A stretch of DNA of 32,000 nt from Candidatus Nanoclepta minutus (GTDB lineage Archaea > Nanobdellota > Nanobdellia > Nanobdellales > Nanobdellaceae): NCBI GenBank assembly GCA_003568775.1, contig MWMI01000001.1:30001-62000 (forward strand). Direction: 5' to 3'. The notes beneath the pieces are model-generated. The model ran no database searches and was not told where the DNA came from. It was given only the letters and a program-made list of their open reading frames with translations. Positions within the stretch are counted from its first letter, which is position 1, and each line of letters begins with the position of its first letter. Both the position numbers and the translations under genes were made by a program. Shown here in pieces: positions 3,717-24,943 of the stretch.

Positions 3717-4724
3717 TTAATTTTTATTTTTATTATTATTCTTTAAATTTACTAATATTTTATTGTCTTTTTTTATAACTTCTATAGGGAGATTTAAACT
3801 TTTTATATATTCATCTATTTTTTCTAAGTTATAACCTTCAAATATCCAATAATTTTCCTTTATAATATTTGCAATTTTCAGAAGTTTATTGTATTCTTCT
3901 TTCATTTTTTCCAAAGTTTTTTCTTGATTTTCTATAATTCTTTTTATTTCCTCCTTTTTATTTTCTATTTCCCTTTTCTTATTTTCAATTATTTCCTTAA
4001 AATACATTTCCTCAAAAAACTCGTTTACTTCTTTATACCAGCTGTTATCATAAAGAATTTCTTTCTTTTCTAAAATATAGAGATATATATCATATATCTT
4101 CCTTATTTCTTCATCAGAAAGTTCTTTTATTGGTTTATTTTTTTCTATACCTGCTTCCTTTAGTATATACTCAGCATATTTTTTTGATAACCCAAAATCT
4201 ATTGCTAAACACCTAACGATATCTTTCTTATCACTCCTTTCAATAACTTCAAGGAATTCCTTAAATTCTTTTGGTAATGAAAAGTTCTTTAAAGGTTTTT
4301 TGTATGTTTCTCCAATAGATATATTCCTATAACCGAAGTTCTTATACCTATTAGCATACAATATCTTATCTTTTTTATCAGTTACTATTATCAGACCTTT
4401 TGGTAAGAGTTCTATATAAATTCTTTTATCTTCTATTTCAAACCTAACTATCTTATCATCTTCTAAGAAAATGTTTAATTTTTTATTCAAAAAATCTTTT
4501 TTTAACCTTTCAACAAACTTGTTTTTTATTTTTTCTAGTTTATTGTTCGAAAGGAATATTATTTTCTCTGGAACTACGTAAAGGTATCTTTTATTCAAAT
4601 CTCTTTTATATATTTCAAAAACATAGGCATTTCCTACAGAAAATATATCTCTTATTATTGAGTTATTTATTTTCTCCCCATTTTCATTAAACCATTTTAT
4701 TAGATCTATATAGGTAATATTCAT
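3717..4724 (-). CDS. NFACT-N / HhH / coiled-coil protein (truncated Rqc2/NEMF/FbpA-like ribosome quality-control homolog)
   Basis: The N-terminal 150 aa follow the NFACT-N pattern (FVERLKKDFLNKKLNIFLEDDKIVRFEIEDKRIYIELLPKGLIIVTDKKDKILYANRY...GETYKKP). An HhH-like segment (FGLSKKYAEYILKEAGIEKNKPIKELSDEE) and a K/E-rich coiled coil follow. At 335 aa there is no NFACT-R/DUF814 part. Confidence 0.6.
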   Translation of the reverse strand: MNITYIDLIKWFNENGEKINNSIIRDIFSVGNAYVFEIYKRDLNKRYLYVVPEKIIFLSNNKLEKIKNKFVERLKKDFLNKKLNIFLEDDKIVRFEIEDKRIYIELLPKGLIIVTDKKDKILYANRYKNFGYRNISIGETYKKPLKNFSLPKEFKEFLEVIERSDKKDIVRCLAIDFGLSKKYAEYILKEAGIEKNKPIKELSDEEIRKIYDIYLYILEKKEILYDNSWYKEVNEFFEEMYFKEIIENKKREIENKKEEIKRIIENQEKTLEKMKEEYNKLLKIANIIKENYWIFEGYNLEKIDEYIKSLNLPIEVIKKDNKILVNLKNNNKNKN

Positions 4725-4802: not shown

Positions 4803-5393
4803 ATGGCGGTAACAAACCGGGATATAAGATGTAGGACAATGGACGATCTGTTAGTAACATTAGAGAGTGTAGTACCAGAAGAGGATAAGGTAATGTGCTT
4901 AAGAGACATGGGAATTACTAACATACATAAATATGGAGAATATATGGCAAATTTAGAAAAATCTATTAAAGAAAAAGAAGAAAGAAAAAAAGAGCTAGAA
5001 TCTATAGTGGAATTAGAAAAGGAAAAGAGTGATATAAGGTATGCTCCAATTGAACTTTTACCAGGAACGCTATTAGCTTATGTTGCTTATAAATTTTTCG
5101 AAGCTTCTGCAATGAATATCGTCGAAAATTATAAATATTATGGATTAGGCGCTTATGTTGGTTCGGTTATAACAAGTTTAATTGGTCTTTGTATAGGTAT
5201 ACCCGGAGCAGCTCTTCTTTGTGGTGCTTTTAAAGATATAAAAAACTATATTAAAGCGAAATATATTGAGCATAAAATAGGAAAAATTAACGTAGAAGAA
5301 TTGAAAAAAGAGTTGAATAGACTAGGAGAAGATCTGAATAAAGAGAGAGAGTTATACAGTTTATTAAAGAATTATTATAATAAGATATTTTAA
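4803..5393 (+). CDS. hypothetical membrane protein with flanking coiled-coil segments
   Basis: Long ORF in an otherwise empty interval. It has K/E-rich helices (KSIKEKEERKKELESIVELEKEK; VEELKKELNRLGEDLNKEREL) flanking two hydrophobic segments (LLPGTLLAYVAYKFF; GAYVGSVITSLIGLCIGIPGAALLCGAF). I recognise no family, and the start may be the internal MDDLL. Confidence 0.5.
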   Translation: MAVTNRDIRCRTMDDLLVTLESVVPEEDKVMCLRDMGITNIHKYGEYMANLEKSIKEKEERKKELESIVELEKEKSDIRYAPIELLPGTLLAYVAYKFFEASAMNIVENYKYYGLGAYVGSVITSLIGLCIGIPGAALLCGAFKDIKNYIKAKYIEHKIGKINVEELKKELNRLGEDLNKERELYSLLKNYYNKIF

Positions 5394-5473
5394 TGTAGAT
5401 AAAAATAGACCTCTTTATTTTTAATTATTTTTTAAAATTTTTATCAGAGATACTCTTAACAATTTTCTTAATA

Positions 5474-5480
5474 TTTTTAT
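5474..5480 (+). promoter_or_regulatory. TATA-box-like element for the C/D sRNA - tRNA-Leu unit
   Basis: ATATTTTTATG is centred about 24 nt upstream of the C box at 5501. It is nearly identical to the TAATTTTTATC element found the same distance upstream of tRNA-Ile. Confidence 0.4.
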
Positions 5481-5500
5481 GAAGCATAATAGTTATATAG

Positions 5501-5549
5501 ATGATGAAGATTCGGGGCCTTGAATGGTGAAGAAAAGGTTCCATCCTGA
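5501..5549 (+). ncRNA. C/D box sRNA (2'-O-methylation guide)
   Basis: Textbook archaeal architecture in order: C box AUGAUGA (5501-5507), 12-nt guide AGAUUCGGGGCC, D' UUGA (5520-5523), 3-nt spacer, C' GUGAAGA (5527-5533), 12-nt guide AAAGGUUCCAUC, D box CUGA (5546-5549). It is intergenic, has a TATA-like element upstream, and sits in a GC-enriched patch. Confidence 0.65.
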
Positions 5550-5553
5550 GAGA

Positions 5554-5637
5554 GCGGGGGTGCCCGAGAGGTCAAAGGGGTCGGGTTGAGGTCCCGATGG
5601 ATTAGGTCCGTCCGGGGTTCGAATCCCCGCCCCCGCA
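5554..5637 (+). tRNA. tRNA-Leu (anticodon GAG), class II with long variable arm, no encoded CCA
   Basis: Acceptor GCGGGGG/CCCCCGC, 3-bp D stem CCC/GGG, anticodon stem TCGGG/CCCGA with loop TTGAGGT (GAG), 15-nt variable arm TGGATTAGGTCCGTC, T arm CGGGG-TTCGAAT-CCCCG, discriminator A. Total 84 nt. Confidence 0.93.
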
Positions 5638-5738
5638 TAGATTGTGATGAATAAAAGGCTCTAAACGTTTACTGTGATACTTCTATGTAAGGTCTCATCC
5701 CAGTATAGCTTTTATTCCTTTAAACGAATTAAATAATA

Positions 5739-7496
5739 ATGCTAATAATAGCAGAAAAACCGTCAGTTGCCAGAAACATTTCATACTTCTTATCCAATGG
5801 AAACTATAGGAGAATAAAGTTTTCTAATGGAATTTATTATTATTTCTTGAAATTGGATGGGGAAAACATTTTTGTTGTTCCATCTATAGGACATTTATAT
5901 ACAATCTCTGATATGAAGAGGGATTTTAGTTATCCAACCTTTAACTATAAATGGGTCCCCTCTTATTATGAGGATAGAATATTCATAAAGAAAAAATATA
6001 TCGAGATGTTTAGACAATTTTCCAATGAAGATAAAGTAGTTTTAGCTACAGATTATGATATAGAAGGAGAGTTGATAGGATATAACATAATAAGGTTTGC
6101 TTTGAATAGAAGGGATGCTAATAGGATGATATTCTCCGCAATTACTAAAAAAGATATATTAAATTCTTTCTATAATCAAAGGGATAATATAGATTACGGA
6201 ATGGCAATAGCTGGAGAAGTTAGGCATATAGTTGATTGGTTATATGGTATAAACCTCTCCAGGATACTTACAAGATCGCTCTGGCATTATACAAAGGATT
6301 ATATCTTAAGTATAGGAAGGGTTCAGGGACCAACCTTAAAAATAATCTTAGAAAGGGAGAAAGAAATAGAAAATTACAAACCCGAGGAGTATTATGTTCT
6401 ATCCGCAGTTATATTGAAGGATAACTTAAAGATAAAGGCAGTTTATAGGGAAAAATTGAAGAGTAGATCGGAAGCAGAGGATATAAAGAAGAGGATTGGA
6501 AAAAGTGTTAAAGTAATTGATGTAAAAGTAGAAAAGTTATCAGAAGCTCCTCCCCATCCCTATAACCTAACGAACATCCAAGTAGATGCTTATAAACTAT
6601 ATAAAATATCCCCAAAATCAACCTTAGATATCCTGCAGAGTTTATATGAGAGGGGATACGTTTCATATCCCAGGACATCTTCTGAAAGACTTCCGGATAC
6701 AATAGACTTCAGAAGTATAATAGAGAATTTAGGTGAGATAAGCACATACAGAAGATTTTCAGAAGCTTTGGTCAGTAAAAGGGTTTTAAGACCAAACAAT
6801 GGAAAGAAGGAAGATGTCCATCCAGCAATACATCCAACAGGTATAATCCCATCTAATTTATCTAAAAAAGAGTTTTTGATATATGATTTAGTTGTTAGAA
6901 GGTTCTTTGCAACTTTTATGGATCCTGCAATCTTGGAGAGGAATATAGTTCTATTTAGTAACGGTTTAGAGTTTGATTACAAGAAGTGTATTAGTAAGGG
7001 GTGGATGGTTGTATATTGGAATATTCTATCGAAGGTTTTCCTGGAAATTAACTTTAAGGTTGGGGAAGTTTTGAACGTTGAGAAGGTATCTATAAATAAG
7101 AAGAAGACTCCTCCACCTCCTAGATATAACCAAGCTTCCCTTATAAAGAAGATGGAGGAATATAACCTGGGTACCAAATCCACGAGGGCGGAGGTTATTT
7201 CTATATTATATAATAGGAATTATATCGATGGTAGATCCATAAGGCTTACGAAACTAGGGGAGAAAGTGATCGATATATTCGAGAGATACTTTCCAGAAAT
7301 ACTTGATATAAACCTTACAAGAAAAATAGAAGATAAATTGGAGTTAATTATGAAGAATCCGGATTCTTCAATAAAAGATGAGGTTATAGGAGAAGTTATA
7401 GAGATTATAAAGCAAATATCTAATGGGTTGGATGAAAAAAAGATCGGGAAGGAGATCTATGATGCCATAAAATTACTTAATTCCAATAATACTTAA
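5739..7496 (+). CDS. topA: type IA DNA topoisomerase (archaeal TopA / Topo III-like), no zinc-ribbon tail
   Basis: Toprim motifs MLIIAEKPSVARNI and DYDIEGE, the GRVQGPTL motif, and the active-site tyrosine context GYVSYPRTSS (Topo III-type rather than the reverse-gyrase ITYxRTDS type). 585 aa with a single Cys. Confidence 0.9.
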   Translation: MLIIAEKPSVARNISYFLSNGNYRRIKFSNGIYYYFLKLDGENIFVVPSIGHLYTISDMKRDFSYPTFNYKWVPSYYEDRIFIKKKYIEMFRQFSNEDKVVLATDYDIEGELIGYNIIRFALNRRDANRMIFSAITKKDILNSFYNQRDNIDYGMAIAGEVRHIVDWLYGINLSRILTRSLWHYTKDYILSIGRVQGPTLKIILEREKEIENYKPEEYYVLSAVILKDNLKIKAVYREKLKSRSEAEDIKKRIGKSVKVIDVKVEKLSEAPPHPYNLTNIQVDAYKLYKISPKSTLDILQSLYERGYVSYPRTSSERLPDTIDFRSIIENLGEISTYRRFSEALVSKRVLRPNNGKKEDVHPAIHPTGIIPSNLSKKEFLIYDLVVRRFFATFMDPAILERNIVLFSNGLEFDYKKCISKGWMVVYWNILSKVFLEINFKVGEVLNVEKVSINKKKTPPPPRYNQASLIKKMEEYNLGTKSTRAEVISILYNRNYIDGRSIRLTKLGEKVIDIFERYFPEILDINLTRKIEDKLELIMKNPDSSIKDEVIGEVIEIIKQISNGLDEKKIGKEIYDAIKLLNSNNT

Positions 7497-8081: not shown

Positions 8082-9950
8082 TTATAGGTTTAATAATAGT
8101 GAATCTCCCAATTTTGGGGCATAAGCTTCGATGTTGAGTTTAATCCTTATGGAGTTAACTAGTTCGAAATATTTTGGATGTTCCCCGTGTACGACGAATA
8201 TTTGTTTTGGTTTTGGTTTAAGATGCTTGATGTATCCCAATATTTCCCTTCTATCGGCATGACCGGAGAAACCATCGTATTTCTTATATTTTATTTTAAC
8301 CTCTATCTTTTCGCTATCTATGATAAAGGATTTTTCTCCGTCCAGTATTCTTCTTCCTAGAGTTCCTTGTGCTTGATATGAGACAAAAGCTAACAAATTT
8401 CTCTCATCGTTTGCCAACCTTTTGAAGTATTCCAATATCGGTCCGCCCTGCATCATTCCAGAAGTCGATACCACTATATATGGCTCTTTTGATTCTATTA
8501 TTTGATCCCTCTCCTTTGGATTAACCTTAACTATATATTCCTTCTCGAACAAGTTTTCTCCTCCTAATATCATAGTCCTTACGTAATCTGAAAGGAATTC
8601 TGGATATGCTGTATGTATCATTGAGGTTTCCCAGAGGATACCTTCGGTATATATGTTAACCCTAGGAAGTTCTCCATTCTCTATGTTTTCAATCAACGTT
8701 AAAAGTATATCTTGAGCTCTTCCAACTGATAGAACAGGTATTAGAACTTTTCCATTATCTTTTAATACATCTTTAATATCTTTAATGAACATTTTCTCAG
8801 TTTCTTCCCTTGGTGGATGGTAATCGTTATTTCCGCCATATGTAGACTCTATTATTAATGTTTCCAACCTTTGAAACAGTGTTTTTGGTTTATTCAAGAG
8901 CTTTGTTGGTATATACTTAAAATCACCGGTGTAGAGTATGTTATGTTTATTCTCTATGTTGATATGAACCATTGAGGATCCAATCACGTGTCCTGCATCA
9001 TATAGGCATATTTTTATATCGGGTGTGATGTCTGTTACTTCTCTATATCCTAAAGTATATGTATGTTTTAGGAACTCTTTTATATCCTTTGCCTCATATA
9101 GGCTCTTTTTTCCCTGCATTTTACTAATTTTTACGTAATCTAACATGGAGAGGGATCCTATATCCCTCGTTGGTTCAGTTAGATATACGGGGCCCTTCCA
9201 TCCCAACCTAAAGAGATATGGTATGAATCCTATATGGTCTAAATGAGCGTGAGTGATTATTGCAGCATCTAGATCTAAGATATTGAAGTCTTCTATGTTT
9301 ATCGCAGGATATTTTTCTGTCCCTACGTCCATTCCAACTCCGCAATCTAATAGAACACTGCTCTCATCGGTTTTCAATAGAATACAGGATCTCCCAACTT
9401 CCCTAGTTCCACCCAAGAAGATTATTCTATAATTTCCCCTTTTTAATGTAGATTTTCTAGTTACTATCCTTTCCCCAACTTTGTTTAAAAAAGAAACCCT
9501 ATACTTTGATTTTTTGTGTAAGTAAGATCTAACAATGTCTATTATTCTAGAAGATTTGAGTGGAGATCTCTTTATTACTATATTACAGAAAGTTTTTTCT
9601 CTTATTTCTCTGATAACTCCTTCATCTATTTTTTCAGGTTGATAGGTATCTATAACTATTATGGATCTGTGTCTCTCTAAAAATATGTTCTTATATTTTA
9701 TTTTATATTTATTCAATATTTCTTCACATTTTTCTATTATTTTCTCTTCATTTTCTAATATTTTAGGACTTAGTCTAATTTCTATCCTTTTTTTATATTT
9801 CTGAGCTAAGTTTTTGCCTATCTCAAATCCATTTAAAAATATTTCCTTGTTTGTTACATATACTATAATCTTAGCTGCTTCAAATACAACTTTTTCTACA
9901 TCAGATTCCTTAAATTCCGATAATATTTGAGTTTTTATATCATTCATCAT
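8082..9950 (-). CDS. fttA: aCPSF1 / FttA: KH-domain beta-CASP metallo-beta-lactamase ribonuclease (transcription termination factor)
   Basis: N-terminal KH-like repeats, the MBL motif THAHLDHIG, beta-CASP motifs, and a C-terminal SGHADRREIL...VVHGE. The 622 aa length is typical of archaeal CPSF1. Confidence 0.9.
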   Translation of the reverse strand: MMNDIKTQILSEFKESDVEKVVFEAAKIIVYVTNKEIFLNGFEIGKNLAQKYKKRIEIRLSPKILENEEKIIEKCEEILNKYKIKYKNIFLERHRSIIVIDTYQPEKIDEGVIREIREKTFCNIVIKRSPLKSSRIIDIVRSYLHKKSKYRVSFLNKVGERIVTRKSTLKRGNYRIIFLGGTREVGRSCILLKTDESSVLLDCGVGMDVGTEKYPAINIEDFNILDLDAAIITHAHLDHIGFIPYLFRLGWKGPVYLTEPTRDIGSLSMLDYVKISKMQGKKSLYEAKDIKEFLKHTYTLGYREVTDITPDIKICLYDAGHVIGSSMVHINIENKHNILYTGDFKYIPTKLLNKPKTLFQRLETLIIESTYGGNNDYHPPREETEKMFIKDIKDVLKDNGKVLIPVLSVGRAQDILLTLIENIENGELPRVNIYTEGILWETSMIHTAYPEFLSDYVRTMILGGENLFEKEYIVKVNPKERDQIIESKEPYIVVSTSGMMQGGPILEYFKRLANDERNLLAFVSYQAQGTLGRRILDGEKSFIIDSEKIEVKIKYKKYDGFSGHADRREILGYIKHLKPKPKQIFVVHGEHPKYFELVNSIRIKLNIEAYAPKLGDSLLLNL

Positions 9951-17097: not shown

Positions 17098-18096
17098 ATG
17101 AAGTATGTTGTAGTAAGACCAAGGGGTATATATGTCTTTAATGAGAGGTTGGAGAAGGAAGATTTCATTAAAGTTGAACTAGAGGAGAGTGAGATAATAG
17201 ATATACTTTCTGGTAAATTACCTGAAAGAGTTAAGAAATATATAAAGGAAGATTATGTATTTTTGGGACAGAAGTTCGAAGGTTATAATAGTGATTTTGA
17301 TAGAGATAAAATAAGGAAAGCTTTGGATATTATATCCATGGAAGAGGAGGGAATAGATCAATCTAAATTCTATATAGCAACAAAGATGGGAATAGCAAAG
17401 TCCATAACTAGAGATCAGCTTATAATCCAAATAATTATGCTGTTAGATGATATAAACAAGATAACAAACTTAATGGTTGAAAGGTTTAGGGAGATATATA
17501 ACCTTTACTTACCTGAAGTCTCTCAGATGATTGAAGATCATGAAAAGTTCCTAAAGAGCGTTATAGGAAAGAGGAGAGAAGATTTGATGAAGGAATTTAA
17601 GATAGATACAACGATGGGGGGAGAACTAAAGGATAAAGATGTAGAAATAATTAATAAAATCGGAGAAAAAATATTAGATCTCTATAAGTTGAGGGATACA
17701 TTAAAGGACTATGTAGAAGAGTTAATGAATGAAGTTTGCCCGAATTTATCTAAAGTAGCTACACCAACGATAGGTGCAAGGTTAATTGCCTTAGCTGGTG
17801 GTCTGAGAGAACTAGCGATACTCCCATCTTCAACTATACAGGTACTCGGTGCTGAAAAAGCCTTATTCAAGCATCTTACCAAAGGTACTCCGCCACCAAA
17901 ACATGGTGTTATATTCAACCATCCTCTAATACAGAAGCTACCCAGAAAGCAGAGAGGTGCTATGGCCAGAACTTTAGCTTCAAAGATAGCGATAGCAGCA
18001 AAAGTTGATGCATTTACACCAGGAAAGCTTGTTTACGAATCTTTAATAAAAGAACTGGAAGAAAGGTTTAATGAACTAAAACAGGAGAAAAAATGA
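17098..18096 (+). CDS. nop5: Nop5 (Nop56/58) C/D box sRNP core protein
   Basis: Nop domain block GARLIALAGGLRELAILPSSTIQVLGAEKALFKHL...PPKHGVIFNHPLI. Its stop overlaps the fibrillarin start (ATGA). Confidence 0.9.
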   Translation: MKYVVVRPRGIYVFNERLEKEDFIKVELEESEIIDILSGKLPERVKKYIKEDYVFLGQKFEGYNSDFDRDKIRKALDIISMEEEGIDQSKFYIATKMGIAKSITRDQLIIQIIMLLDDINKITNLMVERFREIYNLYLPEVSQMIEDHEKFLKSVIGKRREDLMKEFKIDTTMGGELKDKDVEIINKIGEKILDLYKLRDTLKDYVEELMNEVCPNLSKVATPTIGARLIALAGGLRELAILPSSTIQVLGAEKALFKHLTKGTPPPKHGVIFNHPLIQKLPRKQRGAMARTLASKIAIAAKVDAFTPGKLVYESLIKELEERFNELKQEKK

Positions 18097-18764
18097 AACT
18101 CATACCATTAAAAGAGAATCCTAAGATATTTAGAGATGATAAATGGAGGTTATATACTAAGAATTTAGTTAAGGGACAGAGTGTATATGGGGAGAAGTTA
18201 ATTGAGTATAAGGGAGAGGAATATAGAGAATGGATAGCAAATAGATCGAAGTTGGCAGCAGCCATAAAGAAGAAGATCGGAAAAATACCGATTGAGGAGG
18301 GAGATAAGGTATTATATTTAGGTATTGCTGCAGGTACGACGGCTTCTCATATATCGGATATAATCGGATGGAAGGGTCTAATATACGGTATAGATGTTGC
18401 TCCAAGAATACTTATAGAATTGATGAAGTCTATAGGAAAGAGGAAGAATATAATACCGATCTTGGCCGATGCTTCTAAACCAGATCTTTATCTATCTATA
18501 GTACCAAAGGTAGACCTAGTTTATCAGGATATAGCACAACCACATCAAGTTAAGATACTCATAAATAATGTGGATTTATTCTTGAAGAATAAAGGCTATG
18601 TTTTCTTTGCTGTAAAAGCAAGATCCATTGATGTCAGTAAAGATCCAAGGTTAATATTTGATGAGGTAGGAAAGGAATTAGAAGAGTATGGTTTTAAGAT
18701 AGTTAACAAGGTTAGATTGGAACCTTACCATAAGGATCATATGATGTTCTTGTTACAGAAATAA
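18093..18764 (+). CDS. flpA: fibrillarin-like rRNA/tRNA 2'-O-methyltransferase
   Basis: SAM-binding VLYLGIAAGTTASHISDI, EYREW, and a DVAQP-like DIAQP motif. In the conserved nop5-flpA pair. Confidence 0.93.
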   Translation: MKLIPLKENPKIFRDDKWRLYTKNLVKGQSVYGEKLIEYKGEEYREWIANRSKLAAAIKKKIGKIPIEEGDKVLYLGIAAGTTASHISDIIGWKGLIYGIDVAPRILIELMKSIGKRKNIIPILADASKPDLYLSIVPKVDLVYQDIAQPHQVKILINNVDLFLKNKGYVFFAVKARSIDVSKDPRLIFDEVGKELEEYGFKIVNKVRLEPYHKDHMMFLLQK

Positions 18765-20348: not shown

Positions 20349-20421
20349 TGGGCCCGCGGGGATTCGAACCCCGGTCAATGGGTCTGGAGCCCACCGTCCT
20401 ACCTGGCTAGACTACGGGCCC
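20349..20421 (-). tRNA. tRNA-Trp (anticodon CCA), intron-less, no encoded CCA
   Basis: The reverse complement folds as acceptor GGGCCCG/CGGGCCC, D arm GTCT-AGCCAGGTA-GGAC, anticodon stem GTGGG/CCCAT with loop CTCCAGA (CCA), T arm CGGGG-TTCGAAT-CCCCG, discriminator A. Total 73 nt. Confidence 0.92.
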
Positions 20422-20430
20422 ATTCATATA

Positions 20431-20730
20431 TTAGAATTCCTCTGTTTTAATATATCCATTCTTCTTTAACCATTCAACCTCGTTTTGTGAATACGTATAT
20501 AGTATATCTCCCTTCCTATCACCATCTATCTCCCAGGGATCTACTAATACATATGCGTTTTTTATAAGGTATACCTTACTTGAAAGCTTCTTCGGTACCC
20601 TACATATCCTAACTTTACCATCCAGGCATTTAACTCTGGCATGTGCCCAACCAACTACTTCCTCAATTATCCCTATTACCTGTCTATCTTTAGGTAAAGG
20701 AGTTTCTTTATCATTATCTTTTCTTTTCAT
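20431..20730 (-). CDS. aif1A: translation initiation factor aIF-1A
   Basis: S1/OB pattern: GIIEEVVGWAHARVKCLDGKVRICRVPKKL...YVLVDPWEIDGDRKGDILYTYSQNEVEWLKKNGYI. 99 aa. Confidence 0.9.
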   Translation of the reverse strand: MKRKDNDKETPLPKDRQVIGIIEEVVGWAHARVKCLDGKVRICRVPKKLSSKVYLIKNAYVLVDPWEIDGDRKGDILYTYSQNEVEWLKKNGYIKTEEF

Positions 20731-24852: not shown

Positions 24853-24943
24853 GGGCCCGTAGCTCAGTGGTGGAGCGCCGGCCTTATATGGTCGGGCTCC
24901 CTAAGACAGCCGGAGGTCGGGGGTTCGATTCCCCCCGGGCCCA
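24853..24943 (+). tRNA. tRNA-Ile (anticodon UAU) with a 19-nt intron at the canonical 37/38 position
   Basis: Acceptor GGGCCCG/CGGGCCC, D arm GCTC-AGTGGTG-GAGC, anticodon stem CCGGC/GCCGG, T arm GGGGG-TTCGATT-CCCCC, discriminator A. The anticodon loop CTTATA is interrupted by TGGTCGGGCTCCCTAAGAC (24889-24907). Exon CUUA pairs with intron UAAG as a 4-bp helix flanked by 3-nt bulges UA|U and AC|A, a bulge-helix-bulge motif. The mature tRNA is 72 nt. Confidence 0.85.

Follow-up and report, generated by a model that had tools for sequence, protein, structure and literature searches.

Introduction

Genes for box C/D small RNAs (sRNAs) are joined to genes for transfer RNAs (tRNAs) in a number of dicistronic units, and those in the literature examined place the tRNA first. 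Nanoarchaeum equitans, which has 26 box C/D sRNAs (Randau 2012, PMC3491384), carries the units tRNA-Val–sRNA8 and tRNA-Gly–sRNA3, in which ribonuclease (RNase) Z makes the 5′ end of the sRNA (PMC3491384). Further tRNA-first units are described from I. hospitalis (tRNA-Ser), T. tenax (tRNA-Pro), Pyrobaculum (tRNA-Met–sR44, at most 8 nucleotides apart), and plants (tRNA-Gly–snoR43) (PMC3491384, PMC7994747, PMC6009581). Here we examine a unit of the opposite order in Candidatus Nanoclepta minutus. In the 32,000-nucleotide stretch of DNA that was analyzed (the window; contig MWMI01000001.1, positions 30,001 to 62,000), a predicted C/D box sRNA gene at 5501–5549 on the forward strand ends four nucleotides before a gene for tRNA-Leu(GAG) at 5554–5637 on the same strand.

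Guide RNAs and tRNAs are also associated in other ways. N. equitans sRNA14 lies upstream of a tRNA-Gly gene on the same strand, like the sRNA studied here, but the intervening gap spans 32 nucleotides rather than four, contains an A/T box, and leaves the tRNA with its own leaderless promoter (PMC3491384 supplement). In the tRNA-intron C/D sRNAs (Haloferax tRNA-Trp and others; N. equitans tRNA-Met), the guide resides inside the precursor tRNA and is freed by tRNA processing; these differ from the present case in being intronic, in their release by the splicing endonuclease, and in acting in cis on the tRNA. In MALAT1–mascRNA and in engineered tRNA–guide RNA arrays, a cut 5′ of the tRNA or tRNA-like fold sets the 3′ end of the upstream RNA. 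Those systems are eukaryotic or synthetic and involve no C/D ribonucleoprotein (RNP), and the analogy is one of mechanism alone.

The Nanoclepta unit resembles the dicistronic genes for tRNAs and C/D sRNAs or small nucleolar RNAs in that its members share a strand, lie a few nucleotides apart with no signal between them, and stay linked within a clade; in both cases, one end of the guide RNA is thought likely to be generated by an enzyme that matures tRNA ends. Whereas the dicistrons listed above place the tRNA first and use RNase Z to generate the sRNA 5′ end, this unit places the sRNA first and would use RNase P to generate the sRNA 3′ end. The original prediction cited the co-transcribed N. 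equitans units as a parallel; these are real, but they have the opposite order and are cut by RNase Z, and since N. equitans is without RNase P they set no direct precedent (PMC3491384). We found no description of an sRNA-first order among the published tRNA/sRNA pairs examined, and on the current understanding of N. equitans an unit so arranged would fail there. The components and the logic are known; the reversed order, and hence the different enzyme and RNA end, would be new. We assign a probability of about 65% to the account as a whole, in which a C/D sRNA embedded in the leader of tRNA-Leu is made as part of one transcript, freed by an RNase P-type cut, and employed as a guide on ribosomal RNA (rRNA).

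Results

Architecture and conservation of the sRNA–tRNA unit

The window is A/T-rich (~31% G+C overall) with G+C-rich tRNAs. Downstream of tRNA-Leu lies a topoisomerase I gene (5739–7496) whose product shares 99% identity with its counterpart in 'Nanoarchaeota archaeon NZ13-N', with the next relatives, at 75–57% identity, found in Nanopusillaceae metagenome-assembled genomes, Nanopusillus, and Nanobdella. A look-up of the protein for exact matches gave none. Orthologous loci were gathered via contigs containing topoisomerase I homologs. One of these, L081, belongs to the same strain and shows no difference in the region compared (8690–9050). Three further lineages keep the sRNA–tRNA unit in synteny, namely L082 (75% topoisomerase I identity), L084 (73%), and L086–L088 (66%), the last three contigs representing one lineage, and the alignment accordingly comprises the window, L082, L084, and L086.

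The sRNA elements follow one another in the order C, 12 nucleotides, D′, 3 nucleotides, C′, 12 nucleotides, D, each exactly where the original prediction had placed it. The C box AUGAUGA (5501–5507) conforms to the RUGAUGA feature expected near the 5′ end of this class and, like the D box CUGA (5546–5549) expected near the 3′ end, is 100% identical in the four lineages. The two 12-nucleotide guides, AGAUUCGGGGCC upstream of D′ (5508–5519) and AAAGGUUCCAUC upstream of D (5534–5545), show mean pairwise identities of 0.86 and 0.81, respectively, and the C′ box GUGAAGA (5527–5533; AUGAAGA in the relatives) reaches 0.93. The internal D′ (NNGA) and C′ (RUGAAGA) boxes of a predicted k-loop are both present. 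The D′ box UUGA (5520–5523) is degenerate, with GA alone invariant (UUGA, UGGA, UAGA, GGGA; 61% identity), and the D′–C′ spacer AUG (5524–5526; UAA in the relatives) is 50% identical. Guide spacers measure 12 + 12 nucleotides in the window, L082, and L084 and 13 + 12 in L086. The GAGA linker (5550–5553) is four nucleotides long in all four lineages, although its sequence varies freely (GAGA, AGAT, AATT, TTTT; 25% identity), and it leads into tRNA-Leu(GAG) (5554–5637; identified by ARAGORN, Rfam tRNA score 54.7 bits), which is 96% identical across lineages. Sequence around the unit is 50% identical upstream and 56% downstream. The boxes and guides upstream of orthologous tRNA-Leu genes are conserved and their flanks are not; conservation of the boxes was among the checks proposed in the original prediction.

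As a test against chance, we searched both strands of the window, and 2000 first-order Markov shuffles of it, with the strict pattern RTGATGA-N12-NNGA-N3-5-NTGANGA-N12-CTGA, which matches once in the window and in 0/2000 shuffled windows. A looser version occurs 0.0005 times per shuffled window, and its only matches in 0.92 Mb of DNA are the window element and its orthologs. When the entire window was scanned permissively with Rfam, just four C/D-family matches emerged, the Pyrococcus families sR5, sR35, sR47, and sR28, all of which align end to end over 5497–5551. Their scores fall below the gathering thresholds (24.3 versus 40 for sR5 and 23.4 versus 60 for sR35, with sR47 and sR28 also below), and the D′ guides differ in the Rfam alignments. 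Membership in these four families was rejected on both grounds. The likeness resides in boxes and spacing while the guides differ, and by sequence the element is classed as C/D but outside every curated family. We regard it as very likely that 5501–5549 is a real C/D sRNA gene.

The predicted sRNA also agrees with those of N. equitans in length (~52–60 nucleotides), in its C/D′/C′/D order, in its 12-nucleotide guides, in the lack of a terminal stem, in having few nucleotides after the D box, and in the presence of the partner proteins Nop5 and fibrillarin. It is unlike them in its degenerate D′ box, and the N. equitans sRNA table contains no sRNA with these guide sequences.

Beyond these lineages, no tRNA adjoins topoisomerase I in L089 (62% identity), Nanopusillus, or Nst1, that locus alone having been examined. 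The genomes covered by our contig scan are mostly those of distant DPANN archaea, with three Nanopusillaceae loci that have no tRNA beside topoisomerase I. Judged from these contigs, the synteny of the sRNA–tRNA unit with topoisomerase I is lost below ~62% topoisomerase I identity. A search of viral contigs for tRNA-Leu gave no match.

The tRNA itself differs in one lineage. In L086 (9885–9970) and likewise in L087 and L088, the orthologous gene carries UAG in place of GAG as its anticodon (G34 to U) and is otherwise ~93–96% identical, which by sequence is an isoacceptor switch at an orthologous locus.

A single predicted promoter upstream of both genes

The promoter box TATTTTTAT (5472–5480) precedes the sRNA, with ATATTTTTAT occupying −30 to −21 relative to the C box. 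The original prediction had identified TTTTTAT at 5474–5480 as the T-rich box; that sequence is present, but the invariant part is instead TATTTTT at 5472–5478 (alignment columns T33–T39), which begins 29, 30, 34, and 30 nucleotides before the C box across the four lineages. From this box-to-start spacing, transcription is predicted to begin at a purine at, or 1–2 nucleotides before, the C box (5499–5501), and in L084 four nucleotides before it. A comparable arrangement is found in those N. equitans sRNAs with their own promoter, some of which start at the C box with box A ~26 nucleotides upstream (PMC3491384).

Similar spacing recurs throughout the window. T-rich 8-mers (TTTTTAAA, TTTTTAT, TTTATATA) start 28–31 nucleotides before the ATG of at least 10 genes, including those at 4803, 14565, 15406, 17098, 19941 (reverse strand), and 11254 (reverse strand), which suggests that most messenger RNAs of this organism are leaderless. 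The other two tRNA genes of the window show the same tendency: tRNA-Ile has TTTTTAT at −29 to −23 from position +1, predicting a leaderless transcript, and tRNA-Trp has ATATATTAAAA at −34 to −24, again a leaderless-type spacing, as in N. equitans. The first of these genes (24853–24943) contains a 20-nucleotide intron after position 37 and an anticodon loop reading CUUAUA; ARAGORN did not assign its type, and it is probably tRNA-Ile(UAU). The tRNA-Trp gene (20349–20421, reverse strand) starts 9 nucleotides past the stop codon of an open reading frame (ORF) for eIF-1A (20431–20730), and its A/T box sits within the end of that ORF.

tRNA-Leu does not follow this scheme. It lacks the box A ~26 nucleotides before +1 that marks the leaderless tRNAs of N. 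equitans, positions −31 to −24 reading AATGGTGA, and the window has neither a promoter nor a terminator between the sRNA and tRNA-Leu. The GAGA gap that the original prediction described is confirmed and its single promoter for the unit is supported, with a conserved box before the C box and none before the tRNA. Downstream of the tRNA, a T-rich stretch, CTTTTATT (5709–5716), is the likely terminator; its counterpart in the relatives follows the tRNA by 3 nucleotides (L082, L084) or directly (L086, 0 nucleotides). Because only four nucleotides and no signal separate the two genes, co-transcription as one precursor is likely. The tests that can be made on sequence all favor, and so support, a C/D sRNA gene and tRNA-Leu in one transcription unit.

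One alternative is that two overlapping units exist, the sRNA being made from the upstream promoter while tRNA-Leu is also, or only, transcribed leaderless from a weak promoter in the D′–C′ spacer; the fixed 4-nucleotide linker would then reflect a fixed distance between that box and tRNA +1. In L082, L084, and L086, the sequence at positions −31 to −24 is ATAAATGA; it is rich in A/T and suitably placed for a promoter box, and its spacing from tRNA +1 does not vary among the lineages. The leaderless appearance of the other window tRNAs, and the fact that N. equitans makes all its tRNAs in this manner, point the same way. The window, however, differs from its relatives here, and its AATGGTGA is unlike any promoter box of the genome. 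Moreover, 6/8 of these positions belong to the D′ and C′ boxes, and with no terminator between the genes, read-through precursors would form anyway. We consider an internal promoter unlikely and retain transcription from the upstream box as the preferred reading.

Two sequence peculiarities border the unit. Immediately after tRNA-Leu, the window carries a 68-nucleotide insertion (5641–5708), not found in L082, L084, or L086, that displaces the T-rich stretch. It opens with a C-box-like GUGAUGA (5644–5650), has no D box, is flanked by TAG/ATAG, and is present in the window as a single copy. Possibly it represents an sRNA-like element that has decayed or is mobile. On the upstream side, a 14-nucleotide direct repeat links 5385–5398 and 5471–5484 (ATATTTTAATGTAG, ATATTTTTATGAAG), so that the promoter-box region of the sRNA has a copy at the end of a 196-residue ORF.

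Proposed processing at the sRNA–tRNA junction

Elsewhere, the cut at tRNA +1 is made by RNase P. A cut of this kind after 5553 would leave the GAGA linker as the 3′ tail of the sRNA, and a 4-nucleotide tail fits the 2–5 nucleotides that follow the D box in N. equitans sRNAs. By eye, there is no conserved pairing between 5′ leader and 3′ trailer at the junction, which makes it unlikely that the splicing endonuclease would find a bulge-helix-bulge site there.

Whether the lineage has RNase P bears directly on this step. N. equitans is without it (PMC3491384), but the terrestrial (hot-spring) nanoarchaeote Nst1 has genes for an RNase P RNA of reduced length and for three of the protein subunits (PMC3655853, PMC4919917), and we count this reduced enzyme in favor of an RNase P-type cut. 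No RNase P RNA or protein gene was detected in the window and related loci, which says little because these cover a small part of the genome (~37 kb for the source lineage). The literature searched gave nothing on RNase P for Nanoclepta, Nanopusillus, or DPANN archaea. Separation of sRNA and tRNA by an RNase P-type cut is, in our judgment, the better bet, held with less assurance than co-transcription.

A second alternative accepts co-transcription in a lineage without RNase P, the leader being removed by an as yet undescribed endonuclease acting on the linker left exposed beside the protein-covered sRNA, or by trimming that the C/D RNP limits. The state of N. equitans (PMC3491384) and the reduction of the Nst1 enzyme, which is without Pop5, make this conceivable. 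In addition, as a rule archaeal C/D sRNAs are excised from longer transcripts after the RNP forms, by nucleases yet to be identified (PMC7994747). No such activity, however, is known to yield an exact tRNA +1 end, and RNase P is encoded by Nst1, the closest characterized relative apart from N. equitans. The presence of a conserved sRNA within a tRNA leader is also most simply read as evidence of 5′ processing. We keep a small weight on the RNase P-free route because the other two tRNAs look leaderless, with N. equitans-like promoter spacing, and sRNAs are trimmed by such nucleases; overall it is improbable. The same low odds apply to its specific form, in which the clade has no working RNase P and obtains the tRNA-Leu 5′ end from the precursor by a route dependent on the C/D RNP four nucleotides upstream. 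An RNase P-type cut remains the favored explanation.

Candidate methylation targets

Targets were sought in proxy rRNAs from archaea other than the source lineage. One set consisted of aligned 16S and 23S sequences from seven archaea, N. equitans among them (Dennis et al. 2015 supplement, PMC4644070). The other comprised four rRNA-bearing contigs found through spurious ORFs called on rRNA: L095 (1–1832), L096 (3087–6843), L099 (1–2863), and L100 (1–1973). L095 has A/T-rich flanks and is 83% identical to N. equitans 23S. The protein-database ORFs P0121 and P0124–P0126 are antisense to archaeal 23S rRNA genes and constitute annotation artifacts, and the 23S gene of L096 bears a LAGLIDADG ORF that suggests an intron.

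For all four variants of the D guide, the best or near-best proxy site is 23S AAUGGGACCU (E. coli 118–127), and the extended site AAUGGGACCU(C/U)C is identical in N. equitans and L095 (E. coli 118–129). The L084 guide forms 10 contiguous Watson-Crick pairs with this site (11/12; permutation p 0.002–0.02) and the L082 guide 9 pairs. The window guide forms 8 Watson-Crick pairs and one G-U pair, a weak match (permutation p ~0.3). The predicted methylated base is the equivalent of E. coli G122, 8 nucleotides from the predicted site of N. equitans sRNA19 (23S-106).

The D′ guide finds its best proxy site in 16S, (A/U)UGCCCCGAAUC(C/U), with 10–11 contiguous Watson-Crick pairs. The core AUGCCCCGAA is invariant in the seven archaeal 16S sequences, with M. 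maripaludis continuing UCU, and L099 16S offers 11 contiguous pairs to the L082/L084 guide (p 0.012) and 10 to the window guide (p 0.035). This site lies in helix 34, with 2′-O-methylation predicted at E. coli C1208 (numbering of a 1541-nucleotide copy). At least three alternative 23S sites with 8–9 contiguous pairs also exist for the D′ guide, at E. coli ~1115–1126, in the same hairpin as the D site, and at L095 593–604.

An exact match to the targets named in the original prediction was not found; what the rRNAs of other archaea offer is 10–11 contiguous pairs. Complementary candidates do exist in the proxies, so the prediction does not fall for want of a target. On this comparison, 23S G122 and 16S C1208 are the most likely candidates, and in the lineage's own rRNAs the candidate stretches to look for would be GCCCCGAAUCU in 16S and AUGGGACCUU in 23S.

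Two other proposals were set aside. An initial guess that placed the two targets near each other in 23S domain III was rejected after a pattern search that gave no rRNA: the metagenome search with GGCCCCGAATC-N0-30-GATGGRACCTT returned five contigs, none with an Rfam match, which we take as chance. A double match to 23S GGCCCCGAAGAUGGGAC was rejected as such, since part of it depended on a consensus line not matched by any actual sequence; the stretch is retained as an alternative D′ site (E. coli ~1115–1126). By eye, the guides form at most 8 pairs with tRNA-Leu, one of them G-U, which is unconvincing; no formal tRNA scan was made.

The pattern of change within the guides bears on whether they pair at all. 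All substitutions but one are transitions, so that G-U pairs could maintain the duplex. Both guides vary between A and G at position 1, the D′ guide changes from CC to UU at its 3′ end, and the D guide has U/C and C/U exchanges. L086 has the sole transversion, a G-to-U change at position 5 of the D guide, and this fits the AAUGGGAAU form of 23S present in L099.

It is also conceivable that the element is no guide and instead serves as a kink-turn (L7Ae-binding) or hairpin leader element controlling the expression or processing of tRNA-Leu, or that it is an orphan or decaying sRNA. The D′ guide and the first two bases of the D′ box (5514–5521) are complementary to the D guide (5535–5542) over 8 base pairs, the D′ box is degenerate, and the rRNA targets are candidates. 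Yet this helix shows no compensatory change across lineages and is weaker in L086, and we rejected it as a selected feature on those grounds. Both 12-nucleotide guides are far more conserved than the spacer, linker, and flanks, their spacing is the signature of the methylation ruler, and plausible rRNA targets exist. A non-guide role is therefore somewhat less probable still than either of the two preceding alternatives, and a guide RNA remains the preferred assignment. The possibility that short motifs came together by chance in A/T-rich intergenic DNA, for which nothing speaks except the shortness of the individual boxes, is refuted by the shuffled windows, the single-locus match in 0.92 Mb, and retention in four lineages.

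Core RNP proteins and neighboring genes

As the original prediction noted, genes for two C/D RNP proteins lie in the same window at 17098–18764 (NCBIfam E 1e-85 and 5e-85). Nop5 (aNOP56; 17098–18096, forward strand; NF011121, E 1.3e-85) belongs to the core of the particle; it is short at 332 residues and aligns from residue 95 on (model positions 127–378 of 417). Its gene overlaps by 4 nucleotides with that of fibrillarin, the 2′-O-methyltransferase (18093–18764, forward strand; NF003275/NF003276, E ~1e-82 to 1e-85). L7Ae is not in the window, where no search aimed at it was made.

Upstream of the sRNA, the window contains the 196-residue ORF (4803–5393), which has no Pfam or NCBIfam match and separates the sRNA from an NFACT-N gene. 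This ORF is absent in L082, L084, and L086, where the NFACT-N gene starts ~40 nucleotides from the sRNA and the diverging promoters of the two appear interleaved. The RqcH/NFACT protein of the window (3717–4724, reverse strand) has just 335 residues and matches positions 1–325 of a 645-position model; the gene may be split or truncated. Split and truncated genes are common in nanoarchaeotes.

Discussion

The evidence assembled here suggests the following course of events. One promoter (TATTTTTAT, 5472–5480) would start transcription at or just before the C box, and RNA polymerase would read through the sRNA, the 4-nucleotide linker, and tRNA-Leu to the T-rich stretch. L7Ae, Nop5, and fibrillarin would assemble on the C/D and C′/D′ motifs, and an RNase P-type activity, cutting once at tRNA +1, would create both the mature 5′ end of the tRNA and the 3′ end of the sRNA. 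The released sRNA of ~53–55 nucleotides (5499/5501–5553), bearing a 4-nucleotide 3′ tail, would then guide 2′-O-methylation of the 23S G122 equivalent through its D guide and of the 16S C1208 equivalent through its D′ guide.

Several observations weigh against this sequence of steps. On the side of guide function, the D′ box of the window sRNA is non-canonical, the window's own D guide pairs weakly with its 23S proxy site, and the D′ guide has alternative 23S sites. On the side of processing, the spacing at tRNA-Ile and tRNA-Trp predicts leaderless transcripts as in N. equitans, N. equitans lives without RNase P, and the part of the genome covered yielded no RNase P gene.

If correct, the account has consequences for how guide RNAs and tRNAs are matured in this clade. 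With a conserved sRNA inside a tRNA 5′ leader, both RNAs would be completed by one and the same cut at tRNA +1, and the unit predicts two sites of rRNA methylation, in 23S domain I and in 16S helix 34. RNase P, or its replacement, would join the enzymes that mature archaeal guide RNAs. For only one organism has life without RNase P been reported, and that is N. equitans, the best-studied nanoarchaeote. Since the unit described here cannot work without removal of the 5′ leader, it would serve as a natural and readily assayed reporter of RNase P-type activity in the clade. Its significance would rise sharply should the lineage prove to be without RNase P; a route dependent on the C/D RNP would be a new way of making a tRNA 5′ end.

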